A stretch of DNA of 24,040 nt from Candidatus Heimdallarchaeota archaeon (GTDB lineage: Archaea; Asgardarchaeota; Heimdallarchaeia; Heimdallarchaeales; Kariarchaeaceae), in NCBI GenBank assembly GCA_015523565.1, contig WAKA01000155.1:1-24040 (forward strand), read 5' to 3'. The notes under the pieces are model-generated. The model saw only the letters and a list, made by a program, of their open reading frames with translations. It had not been told where the DNA came from and ran no database searches. This document shows positions 2,404 to 23,311 of the stretch, piece after piece. How positions within the stretch are numbered: position 1 is the first letter of the stretch; each line of letters opens with the position of its first letter. Position numbers and translations under genes: made by a program.

Positions 2404-2491
2404 TAAAATTAATCTTTTTCAAGTTTGAAGTAATTTTTCCAAGTGATTAAGACTAATTATTTATTCCTTAAGTCAAGAATAACAATGTCCA

Positions 2492-3364
2492 ATGGTAAAA
2501 ACTATTGCAGTCCATTCTCATAAAGGTGGTACAGGAAAATCCATTATTGCAGTTAATATTGCCAGTTTATTGGCTGTCAAAGGTTATCGGGTTGTCTTAT
2601 TGGACATGGATTTGGCCGCGCCCACCTTGCAAACTTATTTTCCTTATGACCCCTCCAAAAGAACTTTGACTGAATATTTTTTAGGGGAGGATATTCCTCT
2701 TCAAGATCTTATTTATGATGTTTCCAATAAAATTCCTCTTAAAATTGAGGGGAAGCTGTTTGTAGGTTTATCAAGCATTGAGGGTGGTTTGATCTCAAAA
2801 ATTGACCAGCGAGGTAGAACTGCCCCCTTAAATGACCTTTACCGTTTAATTGGACTTGTCCGAAATAAGCTTGTTGAAAAACCATGGAATGTAGATTTCG
2901 TTGTATTGGATACCTCTCCTGGTGTTTCCATGGGGTCTATCAATAATGTTGCAGTTGCAGAGTATCTTTTTATCATACAGAAACTGATTAATGCAGATCT
3001 TGCTGGAACCGTTGAATTACTAAAAATTATCCATCAATCACTTCGCCCAAACACCGCCATTTTAGTAAATCAACTTCCAGAGAAGTTTCTTACACATGAA
3101 GGAATGAACATTCGTGAATTGGTTGAGGAAAAAGTCATCAAACCTTTGAACAGGCCAAACATATGGTTTGGCGGAGTAGTTATACACGATGAGCATTTGA
3201 TTGAACAAGAAATAGAATACGTCTATGAATCTATCAAACAGGACAAAGAAATGATTGGACGGGAGATTTATACCTTAAAATTTCCAGACTTACCATTTAG
3301 TAAATCAATAAAACAGGTGCTTGAAGCTTTTCTTAAAAAAGTAGAAGAAGAGGAGGGAAATTGA
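2492..3364 (+). CDS. MinD/ParA-family (SIMIBI) P-loop ATPase
   Basis: Deviant Walker A HSHKGGTGKS, switch I DMDLAAP, switch II LDTSPG and the ILVNQ strand. The C-terminus is acidic and has no membrane-targeting helix. Confidence 0.88.
   Translation: MVKTIAVHSHKGGTGKSIIAVNIASLLAVKGYRVVLLDMDLAAPTLQTYFPYDPSKRTLTEYFLGEDIPLQDLIYDVSNKIPLKIEGKLFVGLSSIEGGLISKIDQRGRTAPLNDLYRLIGLVRNKLVEKPWNVDFVVLDTSPGVSMGSINNVAVAEYLFIIQKLINADLAGTVELLKIIHQSLRPNTAILVNQLPEKFLTHEGMNIRELVEEKVIKPLNRPNIWFGGVVIHDEHLIEQEIEYVYESIKQDKEMIGREIYTLKFPDLPFSKSIKQVLEAFLKKVEEEEGN
3352..3356 (+). promoter_or_regulatory. Shine-Dalgarno-like GGAGG for the coupled longin gene
   Basis: GGAGG lies 8 nt upstream of TTG 3365, which directly follows the TGA stop of the ATPase. 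Confidence 0.55.
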
Positions 3365-3982
3365 TTGAAACTTCTCTCCCTCTACATAATCCATGAGGAT
3401 GGCAGATGTCTTTATGACGCAAATTTTGTCCCCAATCCTCCTCCAAGTCAATTGGTCACGGGATTACTTACAGCCATGCAAAATTTTGTCGAAGAAATGA
3501 CAGGTAGCTATGTTTCCCATTTTTCTGCGGCAGGCTACACATTTATCCAAAAACCAGTTGGTCCCATTTACATTGTAGTGGCAATATCTGATGAATTTCC
3601 GTTTGATCAACAGATTGAACTGACTGAACTTGGAATAAATTTCCTTAAACGGTATGGTGAATACTTGGAAAACTGGAATGGTGACATGTCCATGTTCTAC
3701 GAATTTGAGACAATCACAAGGGAAATTTTGAAAGTTGAAAAGATTAAAGAAAGAATTGACCCTCAAACCCCATTAAATGCGTTAACATTATTGGAACTTC
3801 CAGAAGAACTACAAGATGTTGCAAAATTCCTTTTGGAAAAAAAGGAGGTAATTCCAACAGAATATGCAAAATCTCGATCCATAAGTGTTGACAAATCCAT
3901 AGAACTTTTTGAAAGACTTGTGAAAAGAGGTAATATTGGCCGAATTTTAAAAGAGACTGAGCCCACTTACTTTATCATCTGA
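3365..3982 (+). CDS. Longin-like domain protein with a C-terminal winged-helix domain
   Basis: N-terminal longin pattern LYIIHEDGRCLY ... LVTGLLTAMQNFVEEM ... IYIVVAI ... LGINFLKRY. C-terminal wHTH pattern LLELPEELQDVAKFLL...PTEYAKSRSISVDKSIELFERLVKRGNI...PTYFI. TTG start. Confidence 0.7.
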   Translation: MKLLSLYIIHEDGRCLYDANFVPNPPPSQLVTGLLTAMQNFVEEMTGSYVSHFSAAGYTFIQKPVGPIYIVVAISDEFPFDQQIELTELGINFLKRYGEYLENWNGDMSMFYEFETITREILKVEKIKERIDPQTPLNALTLLELPEELQDVAKFLLEKKEVIPTEYAKSRSISVDKSIELFERLVKRGNIGRILKETEPTYFII

Positions 3983-4860
3983 GTTTTTTTGATGTAACTG
4001 GAAATAAAGAATTCTCCTGCCCTATATGAGGACCTCACAAGGGGTCCTGATGCAACATAAATGAAACCCAATTTTTCACCAATTTGCCTATATTGATCGA
4101 ACTTTTTTGGATGGATATATTCTTTCACCCGAAGTTGCCTCAATGTTGGTCGCATGTATTGACCTATCGTTAAAAAGTCAACTCCAACATTCCTTAAGTC
4201 TTTCATTGTCTCAATCACTTCCTCTTCTGTTTCTGACAGCCCAACCATGATGCTTGATTTTGTGAGAATGTTGTGATCTATCCTTTTGATGGATTTCAAA
4301 ACGTTCAACGATTGCTCATAACCTGCCCTTTTATCTCTGACTTTTTTCTGCAATCTTCTGACAGTTTCAATATTATGGGCGATGACTTGTGGTTTAGCTT
4401 GCACAATTTTTTTTAATGCATCAAGGTTTCCTTGAAAATCAGGAATCAATATTTCTATTAATAGTTCTGGATATGCATTTTTCAATGCCTCAATACAATT
4501 TGCAAGATGTCTTGCCCCTCCGTCTGCCAGATCATCCCTGTCAACTGATGTCAACACTATATATTTCAAATTAAGATTTTTAATCGAATCCACAAGTGCC
4601 TGAGGTTCATTTGGATTGAGTGGTTTTGGACTTGGTGATGTTTTCACAGCACAAAACCTGCATGCTCTCGTACATGTATCTCCCATCAACATAAATGTGG
4701 CAGTGCCTCCTGACCAACATTCTGTACGATTTGGGCATCTTGCTTCTTCACATACCGTGGCAACTCCTGACTTCTTGACAGTGGCATTTACGACACTTAG
4801 TCTTCGGGAGAATGTTTTCCCTCTATATTTCAACCAATGTGGAACTTCTAATTCAGCCAC
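3967..4860 (-). CDS. lipA: Lipoyl synthase (radical SAM)
   Basis: Auxiliary cluster motif CEEARCPNRTEC, radical SAM motif CTRACRFC, TSVDRDDL, HNIETV, TIGQY and C-terminal VRSSY. GTG start. Confidence 0.97.
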   Translation of the reverse strand: MAELEVPHWLKYRGKTFSRRLSVVNATVKKSGVATVCEEARCPNRTECWSGGTATFMLMGDTCTRACRFCAVKTSPSPKPLNPNEPQALVDSIKNLNLKYIVLTSVDRDDLADGGARHLANCIEALKNAYPELLIEILIPDFQGNLDALKKIVQAKPQVIAHNIETVRRLQKKVRDKRAGYEQSLNVLKSIKRIDHNILTKSSIMVGLSETEEEVIETMKDLRNVGVDFLTIGQYMRPTLRQLRVKEYIHPKKFDQYRQIGEKLGFIYVASGPLVRSSYRAGEFFISSYIKKTQMIK

Positions 4861-4986: not shown

Positions 4987-6681
4987 GTGCAGGAAGCCTT
5001 AAATGAATTACTTAGTCTTGGCGCCAGCCTTTCAAGCAAACTGTCCACAGGATTCCCTCTCATTTCAGCTCGAACCATGATAAAAAATAGGTATGGTGAG
5101 CTTGAAGAGGAAGTTTTGAAATTTTTGGATAACCCCAATTTTACGGCGAACGACAAATTGCAAAATCTGGTTAAATTAAATGAGTATTTTATTCAATTGA
5201 AAAAAGATTTAGCTGAATATGATCTTGGCTTGGAAGAAAGAAACCAAAAAATTTGGGATAGCATAATTCAAAAGATAGATACAACCAATTTCATTATCCA
5301 AGCGTCTCGTGTTCCTAACCTTCATAATTTGATCTCTGATATTTTTATTAGGGAATACGACATCACTGTTCTAGAGGATGTCAATCCCTTTTCAGAATCC
5401 AAAAAATGGTATGAAATTGTTAGCCAAGCAATGTGGCATGGCTCATTCAATTTAAAAATATTGTATCAATCTCCATTTTTTTCGAAAGAACAGTTTTCAC
5501 GTATTTTTGGACTATCTGTGTACTATTTCAAAAGTATTGACTCAATTTTTGATGATGATGAAATCAAAAAATTTCTTACCGATGCAAACTCCAATGAGAT
5601 AAGAGATGATTTAATTCGAGATTTAATGATATTTTATGTCAACATGATTTCTGGATTGGCATTTCTTCAATATAAGGTGGAATTCCTTGAATATGAAGAG
5701 TACCTTGGATATTGGGAATTTGATCTTGATGGGTTCAATTTTATTGGTGGACTGATATCTCGCTTTCAATCCATGAAAACCAGTCTCTCTACATTATTAC
5801 GTTCTGCAGGTATTACTGGGGATTGCATTGCCCTCTTGAAAGGAGAGCACAAGGCAGTCTATAATGAATTTAAAGATTTAGAGATGGTTGTTCTTTCTCA
5901 AAAGTTATTGAATTTACTGCATGAAATTTCTCCTCCTTATGCGGATCACAAAGGTATCATTGACCAAATGGATTCCGTCATGACAAAAATTGAAAAACTT
6001 ATTTCTGAAATTCCTGAAATAGTATTCAAAAGGGAAAATGTGAATGTTTATACCGTTTTGTTCTCATATATTTTAAGCATCATCAAGCAAATTGAATATC
6101 TCCCCTTCAAATCAAGCCAATTACAGGCTAAGTTGGAATGGGCTTCCAGGCTGATGCAAAATACACAAATAACCTCAATGAAATTTCCATTTTTCATTTC
6201 CCCAATTTTATTGAGCATCGATGCCAATTTGAAAAAAGGAGATTTGGGCTCTTTAGAAAATGATTTGATGTCATTGAAAAGTTTACATTCTGCCGAAGTC
6301 AAATTTGACCCTTATCCACACCTTTCAACTGAAATTCTTTTTAACATCCTTAAATTGGTCACCAACCACTCAAACTTAGATGATACCATTAACATGATTT
6401 TCCAAAATTATCTCAGTAATTCTGCATTTATTTCAAGCTCCAGATTGCTTGAACAAATCGAAAATTTCATTGACTACTTAAGGGAATACAAAAAATCCAT
6501 AGAGGAAAACCAAAAAAAGCCTATCCTGCCTCTTGAGTTAGAACAAATGAATACAGCTCTTCCATTGAATCATGTTTTCAGGCATATTCCAAGCTTGGAA
6601 TTTTATTCAATTAAAGGAAAATACATGGAACTGAAATATCCTATTTTTGGTGATCCTAGCTTTACAATATTTGATAAATAA
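4987..6681 (+). CDS. Hypothetical protein, probably all-alpha, 564 aa
   Basis: Long open frame with helical periodicity and no recognisable motif. GTG start, with an in-frame stop just upstream. Confidence 0.75.
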   Translation: MQEALNELLSLGASLSSKLSTGFPLISARTMIKNRYGELEEEVLKFLDNPNFTANDKLQNLVKLNEYFIQLKKDLAEYDLGLEERNQKIWDSIIQKIDTTNFIIQASRVPNLHNLISDIFIREYDITVLEDVNPFSESKKWYEIVSQAMWHGSFNLKILYQSPFFSKEQFSRIFGLSVYYFKSIDSIFDDDEIKKFLTDANSNEIRDDLIRDLMIFYVNMISGLAFLQYKVEFLEYEEYLGYWEFDLDGFNFIGGLISRFQSMKTSLSTLLRSAGITGDCIALLKGEHKAVYNEFKDLEMVVLSQKLLNLLHEISPPYADHKGIIDQMDSVMTKIEKLISEIPEIVFKRENVNVYTVLFSYILSIIKQIEYLPFKSSQLQAKLEWASRLMQNTQITSMKFPFFISPILLSIDANLKKGDLGSLENDLMSLKSLHSAEVKFDPYPHLSTEILFNILKLVTNHSNLDDTINMIFQNYLSNSAFISSSRLLEQIENFIDYLREYKKSIEENQKKPILPLELEQMNTALPLNHVFRHIPSLEFYSIKGKYMELKYPIFGDPSFTIFDK

Positions 6682-7325: not shown

Positions 7326-8537
7326 TTGAAAGAATATGGATTTAAAATTGGCAATTCTTATTTTCACCAATTACATAATGACATAAGATTGACAAATCCG
7401 GTTATAGTTATTAGTGCATTTGAAAGACTTCACTCATTAAAGAGACTTTTAATCTCCCTCGAAAAAGCATTGGTTGCAATTACTCCAAAAATTTTTATTG
7501 TGGTGGGAAAGAAAGAGGATAACTTTCAAGTCATTCAGCATGCAAAAAAGTTTGTTGAGAAATTCAATAATGCAGAACTTATTCTACCATCTGAGAAAAT
7601 GTCTCTTGTTGAACAATATTATTTTGTTGGTGATAATTTTTCGAAAGAAGATTTTATTATCTTGGAAGATGATCTTTGGGTTTCAGATTCATTTTACCAC
7701 TTCGCATCTGAAGCTTTATCCCATTATTCACAAGATGAAAAGATTGCTGGTATATGTTTAAGCTCAATGTCTTTTAATGGTTATACAAAGTTTCCTTTTA
7801 TTCCGATTGATGATGGCACCGATGTTTATTATGCGCAAATTCCATTTTATCATGGACAGGCATTCACTTCTAAAATGTGGCATGGGTTCAAGAACTGGCT
7901 GGAAAGAAATGAGAATCCCAATTGGCAAACTCCACATTTGCCACATGTCTTCCGTTCATTTCCTCTTGATGAATATTTCCCTATTATGACACTTTATCTA
8001 ATTGAAAGCCAAAAATATTTTGTATTTCCTAGAATTTCCTATTCCGTTAATTTTGGGGATATTGGTCGACACTTTAACAAAACTACTTCCTTATTCCAAT
8101 TTCCTCTTGCTCACAAGCGAAATTCATTCAGTTTTGGAAAATTCTCCACATCTATTTCTGTTTATGATGTGTATCAAGAGCTTCTTCCAGAAATTTTTAA
8201 GAAAGAAAATCCTATGCTCAAAGATTTTGAATTCATTGTCGACATTAATGGTGGCAGGTCAGTCTCGGAATTGGATAACATCCCTGATGAAACATATCTG
8301 CTGACTACAAAACCGTGCAAAAACAAAGTGAACGGCTTTTCGAATCAAATGAAACCATTGGAAGAAAATGTGCTTTCTTCTATGAATGGTGAATTTATTA
8401 GTCTTTGCAGATATGGTAGTCTTTCCAGAAAGTTATGTGAGAGGAAACAAATTGCCAAACTTTCAAGCTATTTCTATCCTTACCATGGAATGGGTTATGC
8501 AAAGCGTCTTCTAAATCGGATAATCGCTGTGTTGTAA
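7326..8537 (+). CDS. GT-A fold glycosyltransferase (GT2-like)
   Basis: VIVISAFERLHSLKRLLISL, acidic motif IILEDDLWVS, IAGICL and FVFPRISYSVNFGDIGRHF. The start codon is uncertain (TTG). Confidence 0.78.
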   Translation: MKEYGFKIGNSYFHQLHNDIRLTNPVIVISAFERLHSLKRLLISLEKALVAITPKIFIVVGKKEDNFQVIQHAKKFVEKFNNAELILPSEKMSLVEQYYFVGDNFSKEDFIILEDDLWVSDSFYHFASEALSHYSQDEKIAGICLSSMSFNGYTKFPFIPIDDGTDVYYAQIPFYHGQAFTSKMWHGFKNWLERNENPNWQTPHLPHVFRSFPLDEYFPIMTLYLIESQKYFVFPRISYSVNFGDIGRHFNKTTSLFQFPLAHKRNSFSFGKFSTSISVYDVYQELLPEIFKKENPMLKDFEFIVDINGGRSVSELDNIPDETYLLTTKPCKNKVNGFSNQMKPLEENVLSSMNGEFISLCRYGSLSRKLCERKQIAKLSSYFYPYHGMGYAKRLLNRIIAVL

Positions 8538-14094: not shown

Positions 14095-14145
14095 TAATTA
14101 TGCCACAACCTAATATTGAAATATTCTAATACCATACTAATCTCA

Positions 14146-14667
14146 ATGGCAAAAAAAGTTGCACCTGCATATGACATCTATTTGATAAGAACTTCGGGAA
14201 TCCCTCTTTTTGCAGGCTGTAGTCAAAATGATTATTGCATGGCTCGTATGGGTCAACATGAGTTGCAGGCAGGTTTTCTCGCTGCAATCAATGCATTTTC
14301 CAAAGAAGCATTTGAGAATGAAAAAATTCATACAATTTTTATGGATAATATCCAAATAAATTTCCTTATCAATGAAAATGATGGTTTGATATTTGCGGTC
14401 ATCCATGAAAAAGACCAAGACACTAATTTCATTAAGAAACGTCTGAAGGATGCATATGATGTTTTCATAAACAGGTACCCTGAAGCCAAAGATGAGACTG
14501 TTGTTCAAATGGATCAGTTTTCAGAGATACAAAATATCCTGAAACAACTTGGATTGGTTGAAAACCGTCTTGGTAATACGTTAGAAATGCAGTTTGAAGA
14601 AAAAGTTAGGCATTCCAGAAAACGAAGACTCTTTAACTGGGTTAAAGGGCTAATGTCTGCTTCATGA
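14146..14667 (+). CDS. Longin-like domain protein with a C-x5-C motif and a basic amphipathic C-terminal tail
   Basis: Longin pattern IYLIRTSGIPLF ... LQAGFLAAINAFSKEAF ... IQINF ... LIFAVIH ... IKKRLKDAYDVFINRY. ATG 14146 is preferred over TTG 14116. Confidence 0.68.
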   Translation: MAKKVAPAYDIYLIRTSGIPLFAGCSQNDYCMARMGQHELQAGFLAAINAFSKEAFENEKIHTIFMDNIQINFLINENDGLIFAVIHEKDQDTNFIKKRLKDAYDVFINRYPEAKDETVVQMDQFSEIQNILKQLGLVENRLGNTLEMQFEEKVRHSRKRRLFNWVKGLMSAS

Positions 14668-18306: not shown

Positions 18307-19431
18307 TTATTCAAAAACTGCTGGGAGAATACAGAGTCTAATTTTGTTTAACTTTGTATATGTTTTTTTAGTGGGTCTCTTTAAGGGATTCTGCTTGAGA
18401 TTCAGAAAATGTAGGCTGTTAGGTATTTGAATATCATCGGGAATGTTCTTGATTCTATTTTTTTCAAGGTTTAAGTCTCTTAATTCATTTAAGTGAGAAA
18501 TATTTGGAAATTCTGTTAATTCGTTTTGACACAAATCAATAGACTTTATGCTCTTCGGGAAATTGTTAATCTGTTTCAGTTTACAGTTTCTTATGTAAAG
18601 GTGGGTTACATTTTGAGGGCAGTTGAATGTTTTCAGATCCAAATCATCTAATGCGAGGATTTGTATCTTTTGATTCATAATCAATTGAATATCTCCTTTG
18701 CACCCAATAACTTTCAATGTTTTTAACTTAGGAAGAGACTTTATCCAGTTTAATTGCTCCTTGAGCTCAATATTCTTCAATACAATTTCTTTTAAATTTT
18801 TAAATTTTTCTGGATTTTTTACGTAGATATGATGTACTTTTGATAGATGCAATGATTCTAAAAATTTCATTCCTTGTAATTCCACACTTGAACCATGAAT
18901 TGACAGAAATCTTAAATTGTGAAGATGTGGTATTTTTATAGGGTTGTGCGACAAAATTGAAATTGATAAATTTTTCAATTGGGGAAAATTTTCAAGGAAC
19001 GAAAAATCAGTCAAAACCCATGTGTTTATTCCTTCAATACTGAGTGTTTCCAAAAAAAATAGCACTTTTCTTGGGATGTAATTGCTGATAATTTGGTTTT
19101 TGACTTGAATGTTTAGAAAACGTAAATGTTCCAATTCAAAAATTTCTGGAAAAAGTGCTGGAATTGGATTTTTTGTGGTGAACGCGATAATCTCTTTTTC
19201 TTGGTTGACTAAAATATTGAAATGTGAATTTCCAAATTCTTCAATTTCTGTATCATTAAAGACCTGGAACTCAGAAATAATTGAGAACATCATATCTGGA
19301 AAAGTGATCTTTTCACCATTCTCTTCAGTTCTATTGACAAGACGTTCAATTATCTCTACTTTTTTTATTTCTTTTACAGATATGTGGTTCTCTGATGAAA
19401 GGGGTATTAAAACCCCCCCCGCATTGTGCAT
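18307..19431 (-). CDS. Leucine-rich repeat protein
   Basis: Repeated LxxLxL(xxN) units: FPQLKNLSI, LPKLKTLKV, VTHLYIRNCKLKQI, IKSIDLCQNELTEFP, LRDLNLEKNRIKNIP and LHFLNLKQNPL. About 100 N-terminal residues are non-repeat. Start ATG 19431 or TTG 19434. Confidence 0.85.
   Translation of the reverse strand: MHNAGGVLIPLSSENHISVKEIKKVEIIERLVNRTEENGEKITFPDMMFSIISEFQVFNDTEIEEFGNSHFNILVNQEKEIIAFTTKNPIPALFPEIFELEHLRFLNIQVKNQIISNYIPRKVLFFLETLSIEGINTWVLTDFSFLENFPQLKNLSISILSHNPIKIPHLHNLRFLSIHGSSVELQGMKFLESLHLSKVHHIYVKNPEKFKNLKEIVLKNIELKEQLNWIKSLPKLKTLKVIGCKGDIQLIMNQKIQILALDDLDLKTFNCPQNVTHLYIRNCKLKQINNFPKSIKSIDLCQNELTEFPNISHLNELRDLNLEKNRIKNIPDDIQIPNSLHFLNLKQNPLKRPTKKTYTKLNKIRLCILPAVFE
19413..19420 (-). 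repeat. G8 homopolymer in codons 4-7 of the LRR gene
   Basis: CCCCCCCC on the + strand. It is the longest G/C run I saw in this AT-rich window. Confidence 0.6.
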
Positions 19432-19613
19432 CAATTTGTTTTTCTTTATTATCTATAAAAAAAATGTTTGCATTGGATGGATTATTGATTTATTTTTAAA
19501 TAAATTATTGCGCAAATACATCCATTGATGGTTTCACACTAATGGCTTTGAAATAAAAAAAAGCATATTGATCTGCGAAAATTATCATCTATCGGGCAAA
19601 TAATTTTAGAAAG

Positions 19614-20840: not shown

Positions 20841-21764
20841 ATGTCGATTCGGAAAGCGGCAAATGAAAAACTTATCTCATCCATTACATTTTATCTTGGA
20901 ACCATATTCTTCCTGTTTTCAGTTTTTTATTCCTCATTTATCACGTCCAACATCATTCTGGTTTCTACATATATGCTAATAATTTCTGGTTTGCTACTGG
21001 TATTTGCCTTTATAAACAATTATAGAATCATACTCCCCTTACTTATTGGCATGGTTGCATTCTCAAGCATCAATTTGGGAATAATTCTTGCGGGGATTGC
21101 AGGATTGGGAAGTCATGAGCCCAATGTTGTATCAGGACTTTCCCGCATTGTCCTTGCTGTTTTCATCATCTGGAAATTAACGGCAGAAATGAGGCATTTG
21201 ACATTGGAAATTGATCCTTTTGCACCTAAAAGGGGGTTCATTGGAAATCTACTTTATGGTATTGTCTTTCCAAAACGTGAATTTTTCAGACTTGTCAAGG
21301 TGATGGTTTTCATCATTGCTGGGTTTTATTTTGTAATGACTGGATTGTCCTTAATCAGTACATCCTCAGTCAATATTGCCTTCTTCCAAAAAACGGAAAG
21401 AATTTCACTTAACATTCTCTTTCTTGGAATGCAAACTCCCATGATGATGGCTTCTAGGGCATCTGTCAGCAGAACCTTTTCAGAGTATCTGAAAAACCTG
21501 CAATGGCTTGATGATTCAATACTTCAGGATGGGTCTGAAGAAATAACAAAAGCTTACAGTGAAATTGCCAATTCATCAGAAATCTCTTTTGACTCCATTA
21601 ACTCAAATGGCAAACACCTATGGATTAGCGTATTCCTTATTCTCTTACTTCAAGCATATGAATCCTATATTTTAAACTGGGATGTTGTTCAAACCATTAA
21701 GTCAATTAATTTAACTGAATTTCTTGCACAAATCATCAATTTTGTTCTGAGTCTTATTGGTTAA
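20841..21764 (+). CDS. Hypothetical polytopic membrane protein
   Basis: About 6-7 hydrophobic segments. TTAAATA lies 25 nt upstream of the ATG. No recognised family. Confidence 0.7.
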   Translation: MSIRKAANEKLISSITFYLGTIFFLFSVFYSSFITSNIILVSTYMLIISGLLLVFAFINNYRIILPLLIGMVAFSSINLGIILAGIAGLGSHEPNVVSGLSRIVLAVFIIWKLTAEMRHLTLEIDPFAPKRGFIGNLLYGIVFPKREFFRLVKVMVFIIAGFYFVMTGLSLISTSSVNIAFFQKTERISLNILFLGMQTPMMMASRASVSRTFSEYLKNLQWLDDSILQDGSEEITKAYSEIANSSEISFDSINSNGKHLWISVFLILLLQAYESYILNWDVVQTIKSINLTEFLAQIINFVLSLIG

Positions 21765-22125
21765 TCCATTTTAACGCTTCATTCCTGTCAGTAAACATTC
21801 TTCGTTTTTTTATCACGTCCGTATTGGCTTCCTTGGACACATGTTTTATCTGCAATCCTCCAATTGCCGATCTAGGGCGTAAAACTGCGGCTTTTCTCAA
21901 CTTTGGAGATCCACTTAATTTTTTCACAACCCTTGTAAAATGATTGCGATCTGCTGTAACCTTGAATTCACTAAGATCCGCAAATAAATCAAATCCCTCT
22001 TCCGCTTCCGATAATATTTTTTCAATATCTTTTTCATAATCTATTATTTCCTCATCATTTAGGAAACCTACAAGCCTTATTGTAATTCTATTTGATAATT
22101 TATCATACGCGACATGATATGTCAT
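21754..22125 (-). CDS. STAS/SEC14 (SpoIIAA-like) domain protein, 123 aa
   Basis: NRITIRLVGFLNDEE...FDLFADLSEFK...LRKAAVL...RMFTDRNEALKWI matches the SpoIIAA-like pattern. The real start is ATG 22125. The longer ORF to 22389 overlaps the opposite gene. Confidence 0.78.
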   Translation of the reverse strand: MTYHVAYDKLSNRITIRLVGFLNDEEIIDYEKDIEKILSEAEEGFDLFADLSEFKVTADRNHFTRVVKKLSGSPKLRKAAVLRPRSAIGGLQIKHVSKEANTDVIKKRRMFTDRNEALKWINQ

Positions 22126-22242
22126 ACTATACTTTTTTAATTTCAAGCAGTTAAGATTTAACTTCAAAAAAACAAACAAAATACTTATTGTAAATTTCAT
22201 AACTGATGAATAAAAAAATAGGACATCAAAACTCCAAGGTTC

Positions 22243-22256
22243 AAGAAGGGTTATAT
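22243..22256 (+). promoter_or_regulatory. BRE-TATA promoter of the second MinD-like gene
   Basis: AAGAAGGG followed by TTATAT, 23 nt before ATG 22280. Confidence 0.5.
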
Positions 22257-22279
22257 GTGTCAAAAAGAACTTTTTGTCA

Positions 22280-23311
22280 ATGGCTGTAGAACGGATTATA
22301 GTTATTACAGGGTCTAAAGGTGGTGGTGGCAAGACCCCTGTGGCAATTTCACTTGCACTGTCCCTTGAAAAACTCAAAGTACCTGTCATGATGAGTGATT
22401 TTAATTTTAATAATGCAGATAGTTTTTCTATTCTTTATGGAACCAATGTCTCACAAAGAAAAAAGAAACGTTGGTTGGGGGAACAAGTAATTAATGGTGA
22501 GGCGGTTTGGCGTATCAGTGAACATCTTTGGTTAACAAAGTGGAAAAGTGTGATAAATCTTGGTTTACCCAGTACAACTGAATTTTGGGAAAAAATCAGA
22601 AAGCTTTCACAGTTGGAATTGGGGGAAAATGGACCTAAAGTAATGGTAATCGACACAAATATGACCATGCCCCTGATTTGTCTTCCAGAACCCAAGGTTC
22701 AAGAGTTCCAAAATCTTCCGATAATTGAGGTCTGGCATCTTTGGTCTCCTTCAATTATCCTACAATTGGGAGAACAGGAACGATTTATTCGTGCCATAAC
22801 CAATCTTAATCGTTTTAGTCAAGGATTTGAAGAGCGTATGGTTCATATTTTTACTCCAAGACATTATACCGCGATTTCCCTAAAAAATACCATGTCTACA
22901 TTATTAAAAGGAGAGTTTTCAATAGGCAAGCAAGTCAAATTCAAACAGACAAATCCAAAACCGATAAAATTCAATGAACTAAAAGATGTCCTGTTTGCCA
23001 ATTTCCTTCCGAATATTCTGAATTATTCCACTTCCAACAAATCAATAGAAGATTTGCTTAATGACTGGTTAAAAAATATCACTAAGAAAATTGAAGAACG
23101 CGAATATAGAACAAATAACATAATCATGGTTCCGACTGTTGTTAACAGTATTGCCTTGCTTGTTGAAGAATTAACACTCAAACCCCGAAAAACATTGAAA
23201 AGCATATCTGAAGACATGGGAACTCTTTTCGAGATTATATTTCAATTCATTGTCACAAATAGGGAGGAATTTGCCGCTTTCAGCTTGTTACCTACGTTGT
23301 TTCAAGAATAG
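22280..23311 (+). CDS. Divergent MinD/ParA-like P-loop NTPase
   Basis: IIVITGSKGGGGKT is a deviant Walker A. Switch I-like MSDFNFNNAD and Walker B-like MVIDTN follow. The C-terminal half is not MinD-like by eye. Confidence 0.72.
   Translation: MAVERIIVITGSKGGGGKTPVAISLALSLEKLKVPVMMSDFNFNNADSFSILYGTNVSQRKKKRWLGEQVINGEAVWRISEHLWLTKWKSVINLGLPSTTEFWEKIRKLSQLELGENGPKVMVIDTNMTMPLICLPEPKVQEFQNLPIIEVWHLWSPSIILQLGEQERFIRAITNLNRFSQGFEERMVHIFTPRHYTAISLKNTMSTLLKGEFSIGKQVKFKQTNPKPIKFNELKDVLFANFLPNILNYSTSNKSIEDLLNDWLKNITKKIEEREYRTNNIIMVPTVVNSIALLVEELTLKPRKTLKSISEDMGTLFEIIFQFIVTNREEFAAFSLLPTLFQE

Follow-up and report, generated by a model that had tools for sequence, protein, structure and literature searches.

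The 24,040-nucleotide stretch of contig WAKA01000155.1 analysed here (the window) comes from a Candidatus Heimdallarchaeota archaeon and carries two abutting genes, one for a MinD/ParA-class ATPase and the other for a partner protein made of a longin domain followed by a winged helix-turn-helix (wHTH) domain. We found that pairs of this kind are old and are inherited as units, as a specific two-protein relationship predicts. The winged helix is the constant neighbour of the ATPase clade, and the longin domain was added later, in one branch. The kind of architecture has already been predicted computationally (Li, Burroughs and Aravind, bioRxiv 10.64898/2026.10.19.760177, October 2026), and the pair described here is a member with a lysine-bearing Walker A motif and a housekeeping context. 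The reading that we favour, and hold to be about evenly poised between right and wrong, is that the two proteins form a dedicated nucleotide-switch pair with a stably inherited housekeeping function, in which the wHTH is the cognate element and the longin domain a platform.

When 301 genomes of the phylum were searched with the partner, full-length matches came from many families, together with many matches to the longin part only, in other proteins. At nearly all of the loci fetched for the full-length matches, tblastn placed an ATPase homologue directly upstream on the same strand. Gene order is the same in all 31 complete pairs; in one of them 200 nt separate the two genes, in the others the gap lies between -40 and +38 nt, and adjacency of this kind is far beyond chance. 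The sequence-only reading of this DNA had taken the two genes for a self-contained two-gene module. This was borne out by the abutting stop and start codons and by the order and tight spacing kept at the 31 loci at which a survey across Asgard genomes found the pair. The present assembly holds a second pair on another contig, C1 (ATPase 38% and partner 34% identical, gap 2 nt), and a scan of the genome contigs with the partner as a single protein revealed one close relative. Two to four paralogous pairs are found per genome, in housekeeping contexts. At three loci of family f5 (L031, L033 and L040) the ATPase gene is followed by two tandem longin-wHTH paralogues; the window has a single partner.

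To compare the histories of the two proteins, maximum-likelihood trees were built for the 31 ATPases and the 31 partners. The two trees recover identical clades, three in number, and identical sub-clades, and 18 of their 28 splits are common to both, compared with a mean of 0.25 and a maximum of 5 under random relabelling. Swapping the partner labels among the paralogous pairs within one genome lowered the common splits to a mean of 9.9. Agreement so far above these relabelled controls shows that the pairs duplicated and diverged as units. The distribution of the ATPase was examined by profile search at E <= 1e-40, which was positive in 74 of the 301 genomes. By family, the ATPase was present in each of the 10 other genomes of the family to which the window belongs (f1), in 20 of 21 in f5, 14 of 19 in f17 and 15 of 76 in f11, and at this threshold in none of the 29 genomes of f2, a sister family in the same order, and none of the 68 in f14.

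The surroundings of more distant ATPase relatives (140-220 bits) were examined in families f5 (a second paralogue there), f6, f7, f15, f17 and f18. Neighbours of these ATPases match the wHTH profile of the partner (E 5e-5 to 1e-15) and have no longin domain. Its place is taken by a long helix or coiled coil, by a Cys/His segment or by another domain, and most of these neighbours lie upstream of the ATPase. Since the distant ATPases have wHTH neighbours that lack a longin domain, the winged helix is the companion that stays and the longin domain is the addition of a single branch. The sequence-only reading had cast the longin-wHTH protein as activator or adaptor of the ATPase; a longin domain acting as the coupling element is unlikely, because divergent ATPases keep a longin-less wHTH neighbour and because R14, a loop arginine of the longin domain, is present in only 33 of 50 homologues. 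Prediction of a complex of two ATPase copies with ATP/Mg and one partner, supplied as alignments, gave an ipSAE of 0.00 in two runs without controls, a result that bears neither way.

Two arrangements of the longin-less neighbours were observed in addition. In family f18, a split version of the module (L052:2011-4767, genome G012) consists of the ATPase, a 327-aa protein ending in a homologous wHTH and a separate 176-aa longin protein. In family f17 (L050 and L051), the N-terminus of the wHTH partner is rich in Cys and His (C-x2-C ... H-x-H-x-H) and takes the place of the longin domain; this segment could be a zinc-binding module.

The partner of the window has no Pfam or NCBIfam match of its own. 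Searches of 5.8 billion clustered proteins and of 1.84 billion representatives gave only four close relatives and 131 relatives, respectively, and the related ESM Atlas clusters come from Thorarchaeota and Promethearchaeota. When 50 full-length homologues were searched against Pfam, 13 matched TrmB and six matched Fuz_longin_1 (best 2.7e-6), with one match each to Longin and Sybindin. The AlphaFold2 (AF2) model of the partner has a pLDDT of 92.8, and its DSSP assignment gives strands and helices in longin order at residues 3-122 and a winged helix at residues 139-203. Structure comparison without Foldseek prefiltering matched the longin domain to CPLANE Fuzzy (Z 13.4), TRAPP and Sec22 (12.6) and VAMP7 (12.2), with further matches to AP mu/sigma, Mon1-Ccz1, BLOC-3 and SRX. 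Foldseek agrees on the longin assignment (COPI, BLOC-3, TRAPP, AP2 sigma and MglB), and a PDB profile search with the longin part returned coatomer delta, TRAPPC1/Bet5, MON1 and SRX. The wHTH was matched by fold to TFE-alpha and the ArsR-type AntR (Z 9.4-9.5, root-mean-square deviation (rmsd) 1.4-1.6) and by PDB profile search to AspA (2e-4) and TFE (3e-4), as well as to eS25 and Lrs14. The composition proposed for the partner from sequence, a longin domain plus a winged helix, is thus upheld by Foldseek, Z scores and homologue Pfam matches alike.

The link that had been drawn to NPRL2/NPRL3 and SR-alpha, in contrast, is on the matches listed an analogy of layout only. The nearest longin domains are the first longin of Fuzzy, Mon1 and HPS1, TRAPP Bet5, Sec22/VAMP7 and coatomer delta. 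NPR2/NPR3 is not among the 25 Pfam families listed for the 50 homologues, and no NPRL2/3 chain is among the fold and PDB-profile matches listed for the partner. The loop between strands 1 and 2 of the longin domain reads Asp-Gly-Arg. Its glycine, G13, is invariant in the homologues and probably serves the turn. A role of the following residue, R14, as an arginine finger was considered and set aside as weak in view of its incomplete conservation.

The ATPase belongs to the ParA/MinD superfamily (SIMIBI class, deviant Walker A), as judged by its motifs and by the MinD/Soj-type fold of its model. Nine residues (S9, G12, G13, G15, K16, D40, P44, D140 and G144) are invariant across 24 aligned family ATPases, and K11, D38 and A43 are kept in at least 90% of them. 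The family pattern at switch I, D-x-D-[LF]-x-[AG]-P-[ST]-L, resembles that of Mrp/NBP35. Pfam matches were to AAA_31 (1.5e-16), ParA/NUBPL (5.5e-12) and CbiA (1.5e-11). The top NCBIfam match was NF047398, the KGGVGR-variant ATPase (51 bits, cutoff 90), and no curated NCBIfam cutoff was reached (minD_arch 43.8 against 201.75, minD_bact 37.6 against 212.9 and ParA_partition 49 against 180). An AF2 model built on the alignment of the 24 family members has a pLDDT of 92.2. Its nearest folds are FleN (Z 27.2, rmsd 2.3, 242 residues aligned), E. coli MinD (26.1) and FlhG (26.1), followed by Pyrococcus MinD (25.9), Soj (~24), pNOB8 ParA (22) and SegA (20.2); FleN is also the top sequence match (E 8e-9). 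The modelled chain ends in a helix (residues 268-289) that corresponds in the alignment to the final core helix of FleN and MinD, and then in an acidic tail, EEEEGN; no extra C-terminal membrane-targeting helix is therefore evident in the model. The ATPases are acidic, with a family median net charge of -7 and an isoelectric point (pI) of 5.5; the window protein has -5 and 5.8.

Several statements of the sequence-only reading about the ATPase stood up to this analysis. The motifs KGGTGKS, DMD and DTSPG are intact and in place, the absence of a membrane-targeting helix agrees with a final helix that is a core helix followed by an acidic tail, and no MinE, MinC, ParB or SegB was found by Pfam in the window. 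A search of the whole assembly (90% complete) likewise gave no MinE (PF03776), and ParB_N-like genes in the assembly are confined to two other contigs, C219 and C9. One clade of ATPases (L022-L030, L036 and L038; families f11 and f28) carries a conserved Pro-Cys-Tyr-Cys motif where MinD has its 'GVIPED' segment, and it lacks a 13-residue insert. The Pro-Cys-Tyr-Cys motif could be a metal or redox site.

The wHTH follows the TrmB/MarR pattern, and the copy in the window has several basic residues near helix 3 and the wing. The family as a whole is mildly acidic in this domain, however (median net charge -2, pI 5.2): basic residues are frequent only where the wing begins, and none is conserved in the recognition helix (helix 3). 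A search for centromere or operator repeats around the operon found only short two-copy matches at chance level and no repeat arrays. DNA binding by the wHTH is plausible, and DNA is a possible cargo of the pair.

The features of the operon are listed in Table 1. The arrangement described in the sequence-only reading, in which two genes abut, GGAGG lies 8 nt upstream of the TTG start and a T7 tract follows the second stop, was confirmed on re-reading in every detail. The TTG start of the partner, directly abutting the ATPase stop, is consistent with the N-termini of its homologues, which start MK..LSLYII. The TATA-like box may be an archaeal promoter from which the operon is transcribed with a short leader or none, and the T7 tract is a possible archaeal terminator signal. 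Scanning for bacterial promoters and terminators was uninformative here, the host being an archaeon. The 3' end of the partner gene overlaps that of the convergent lipoyl synthase gene, lipA (3967-4860, minus strand), by 16 nt (3967-3982).

Table 1. Coordinates of the ATPase-partner operon, its signals and the encoded motifs and domains (positions in the window).
Feature	Position	Strand	Basis and remarks
AT-rich TATA-like box ATTATTTATT	2455..2466	+	~26-35 nt 5' of the ATPase ATG, read from the sequence
MinD/ParA-class ATPase gene	2492..3364	+	Open reading frame, 290 aa, TGA stop 3362-3364
Deviant Walker A, KGGTGKS	2522..2542	+	Signature Lys K11, P-loop Lys K16
Switch I / sensor-1, DMD (D38-x-D40), then AAPTL	2603..2611	+	Sequence and 24-member alignment
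Walker B / switch II, DTSPG	2909..2923	+	D140 and G144 invariant (24 ATPases)
GGAGG, Shine-Dalgarno-like, for the partner gene	3352..3356	+	Inside the ATPase tail, 8 nt before TTG 3365
Longin + winged-helix partner gene	3365..3982	+	Open reading frame, 205 aa, TTG start, TGA stop 3980-3982
Longin domain, residues 1-126	3365..3742	+	Topology beta-beta-alpha-beta-beta-beta-alpha-alpha; fold matches
Winged helix-turn-helix, residues 138-205	3776..3979	+	Fold, Pfam and profile matches
T7 tract	3984..3990	+	Just past the partner TGA, inside the 3' end of convergent lipA

The genes around the pair in the window encode LipA, an S10 peptidase, Lrp, Trm1, FtsJ, SCO1, an HMGL-like synthase, Memo and an M24 peptidase, and no integrase, transposase or known defence gene was found within the 24 kb. 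Gene order around the pair is kept in two relatives. Compared with these, the ATPase is 77-79% and the partner 64-67% identical, and the syntenic neighbours are 45-80% identical (Trm1 56, SCO1 62, LipA 71-75 and S10 80). The identity of the partner lies inside the range of its neighbours, so the partner is not unusually fast-evolving. PADLOC gave no match for the partner and only a P-loop-level match of the ATPase to PDC-M28B (28 bits). The partner had no tblastn match in plasmid and phage records, collections that hold few Asgard elements. Against 2.9 million viral contigs the ATPase alignment had no close match, the three weak ones being at 25%, at 28% and at 51% over a 43-residue P-loop stretch. 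No third gene conserved across clades was found beside the pair, only lineage-specific synteny.

Other genes of the window and the assembly are recorded here for completeness. Two syntenic genes without a family (4987-6681, 564 aa, and 7326-8537, 403 aa) are 45-51% identical to their counterparts and are the fastest-evolving in the neighbourhood. A 183-aa open reading frame at 14116-14667 has no Pfam match, and a 375-aa leucine-rich-repeat protein (LRR_4, LRR_8) is encoded on the minus strand at 18310-19434. A second, degenerate MinD/ParA-like NTPase (22274-23311; weak CbiA, AAA_31 and ParA matches) overlaps, as called, the 5' end of a divergent SpoIIAA-like open reading frame (21754-22389). 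On contig C1, 3' of the paralogous pair, lies a gene for a 430-aa protein with a hydrophobic C-terminal segment and no Pfam match (L002:2054-3346); it is not kept beside other pairs. The assembly comprises 3.57 Mb in 233 contigs and encodes a Vps28 homologue, which, together with the taxa of the related ESM Atlas clusters, is in keeping with an Asgard archaeon.

In the reading of a dedicated nucleotide-switch pair, we infer physical binding of the two proteins, the ATPase-contacting domain, the cargo and the cellular role as follows. The ATPase, by analogy with MinD, FleN and FlhG, would form an ATP-sandwich dimer, and binding of its partner would be expected to depend on that dimer. The cognate partner would be the winged-helix module of the downstream protein, kept adjacent in every branch of the clade. 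The N-terminal longin domain, once acquired, would most likely provide a platform on which the protein dimerises or further factors are recruited, and would not be the part that contacts the ATPase. Through ATP binding and hydrolysis, the ATPase would control how the winged-helix protein and its load, possibly DNA, are assembled, located or made available, and the module in this lineage would have a chromosomal housekeeping function rather than being a mobile defence or plasmid-partition cassette. The analogy with MinD, FlhG and FleN (PDB 3q9l, 4rz3 and 5j1j) rests on Z scores of 26-27 over ~240 residues and on the signature lysine, DxD switch I and Walker B motifs. Unlike these proteins, the ATPase has no membrane-targeting helix and no MinE, MinC, FliY or FleQ-type partner, and its switch I resembles that of Mrp/NBP35. 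Several points weigh against a housekeeping switch. The patchy distribution in the phylum (74 of 301 genomes, and 0 of 29 in f2) would also fit an accessory function, and the comparison across clades turned up no third conserved gene from which the cargo might be named. A mildly acidic wHTH that lacks a conserved basic recognition residue weakens the idea of DNA as cargo, and the sole published reading of the architecture is an immune one.

That published reading is a computational prediction by Li et al. (10.64898/2026.10.19.760177), who describe a mainly archaeal 'ParA-wHTH system' within the ConB2 assemblage. It consists of a ParA gene with one or more wHTH genes; the wHTH protein in its simple form has an N-terminal long helix, and some are fused to a profilin-longin-like domain. 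The module of the window can therefore no longer be called undescribed, as it had been in the sequence-only reading. Li et al. propose an immune role in which invading DNA is intercepted and coated. They give as the ConB2 hallmark an Arg replacing the second Walker A Lys (KGGVGR), and as further features a PG motif downstream of sensor-1, a rapidly evolving wHTH and an immune or conflict context. Carried over to the present pair, the wHTH would recognise invading DNA, the ATPase and wHTH together would coat or intercept it, and the longin-like domain would add multimerisation. The architectural fit is close, as a ParA-class gene is coupled to wHTH genes in both cases and the long-helix and longin forms both occur around this ATPase clade. 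The KGGVGR-variant (ConB2-type) model as best NCBIfam match, the patchy distribution and the tandem partner duplications of family f5 point the same way. The Walker A motif here is KGGTGK[ST], however, and the ConB2 Arg is absent, with Lys in 38 ATPases (invariant in the 24 aligned and present in 14 more that were inspected). This family has [AG]-P three to four residues past DxD, which may or may not correspond to the PG motif. Moreover, the partner does not evolve fast when set against its syntenic housekeeping neighbours, the 24 kb hold no defence, integrase or transposase gene and PADLOC found nothing beyond the P-loop, and the pairs are old paralogues, vertically co-inherited within the family. 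We consider an immune role unlikely in this lineage.

The order of a ParA gene followed by a gene for a small DNA-binding protein is that of classic type I partition, and the wHTH could bind a centromere-like site on the chromosome or an integrated element which the ATPase would move. SegAB and the ParA-ParB-AspA system of pNOB8 have this layout of a ParA-class ATPase and a small DNA-binding adaptor, AspA, the centromere-binding protein of pNOB8 (Sulfolobus), is the best PDB sequence match of the wHTH (E 2e-4), and the ATPase fold also matches Soj, pNOB8 ParA and SegA (Z 20-24). That match to AspA is marginal, though, and of a kind generic among archaeal wHTH domains, and the wHTH is acidic across the family. 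SegB is a ribbon-helix-helix protein, and the present pair has no ParB and neither centromere-like repeats nor a repeat array near the operon. It is chromosomal, occurs as two to four paralogous pairs per genome in housekeeping contexts and has no plasmid or phage match. The ATPase is acidic, and SegA and pNOB8 ParA are structurally further from it than MinD and FleN are, which places it nearer to the FleN/MinD/FlhG group than to Soj/ParA. Partition is a rather remote prospect. Regulation of transcription on the model of FleN and FleQ, with an ATP-bound ATPase dimer binding and modulating a winged-helix transcription factor, would suit the top match of the ATPase, since FleN acts on a DNA-binding regulator, and the resemblance of the wHTH to TrmB, MarR, ArsR and TFE domains. 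But FleN, MinD and FlhG score within 1 Z unit of one another, and FleN is thus not favoured over the other two; searches turned up neither a conserved target gene nor an operator repeat, and the wHTH has no conserved basic recognition residues. We regard this kind of regulation as very unlikely. A GTPase-activating protein (GAP)-like role of the longin domain, for example via the Asp-Gly-Arg loop, would move the logic of longins and small GTPases to a SIMIBI ATPase. Longin/roadblock domains are GAP or guanine nucleotide exchange factor (GEF) platforms for small GTPases (MglB, Mon1-Ccz1, GATOR1 and FLCN), and in some systems ParA domains replace MglA beside MglB (Li et al.). GAP longins use the loop before strand 2, with its GP motif, and a neighbouring arginine (PMC12290439), and in the partner G13 is invariant and R14 frequent. 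Against this, R14 is not general, the GP motif is not at that site, ATPase relatives retain the wHTH partner without a longin domain, and the nearest longins among the matches listed are of GEF or adaptor type (Fuzzy, Mon1, TRAPP and Sec22), not NPRL2 or FLCN. Such an activating role appears improbable.

Other longin systems were compared in the same way. NPRL2/NPRL3 of GATOR1 resemble the partner in having an N-terminal longin domain and then a small helical or winged-helix C-terminal part; the partner differs in its D-G-R loop with no GP motif before strand 2, and its ATPase is of the SIMIBI class and not a Rag GTPase. In MglA-MglB and other roadblock/longin-GTPase switches, a gene of the longin/roadblock superfamily likewise adjoins a P-loop NTPase switch, but in the present module it is the wHTH, not the longin domain, that is conserved beside the ATPase, the NTPase is of the SIMIBI class and the longin topology is not that of roadblock. 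The archaeal Dip/Arco division oscillators were rejected as a counterpart, being composed of a Ras-superfamily GTPase and unrelated partners. NPRL2-like longin proteins are abundant in Asgard archaea according to Liu et al. (10.1101/2020.10.19.343400), who do not mention ParA. Where Asgard longins are treated by Tran et al. (PMC10933270) and in the Traffic 2025 survey (PMC12290439), it is solely in connection with small GTPases. No experimental work on the ATPase/longin-wHTH pair was found in the literature.

Three points go beyond the prediction of Li et al. The pair is duplicated and inherited as a unit, its constant partner is the winged helix rather than the longin domain, and nothing in this lineage points to an immune role. 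Within the reading of a housekeeping nucleotide switch, a bolder version is possible, although the balance is against it. A eukaryote-type longin platform would be wired through a winged-helix adaptor to a MinD/FleN-type SIMIBI ATPase, giving a positioning or assembly switch with no bacterial or eukaryotic counterpart in which the longin domain recruits further factors. These might be the abundant Asgard small GTPases or membrane-remodelling proteins, for example, brought to a site set by the ATPase cycle. If true, this would be the first longin domain to work alongside a ParA-class ATPase for a task of core cell biology and not of defence. ParA/MinD ATPases are a prokaryotic means of placing things in the cell, and longin/roadblock platforms, which serve small GTPases, are hallmarks of eukaryotic membrane traffic and nutrient signalling. 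A stably inherited module that combines a longin domain with a ParA/MinD ATPase in the archaea most closely related to eukaryotes could reveal what use was made of such parts before eukaryotes arose.

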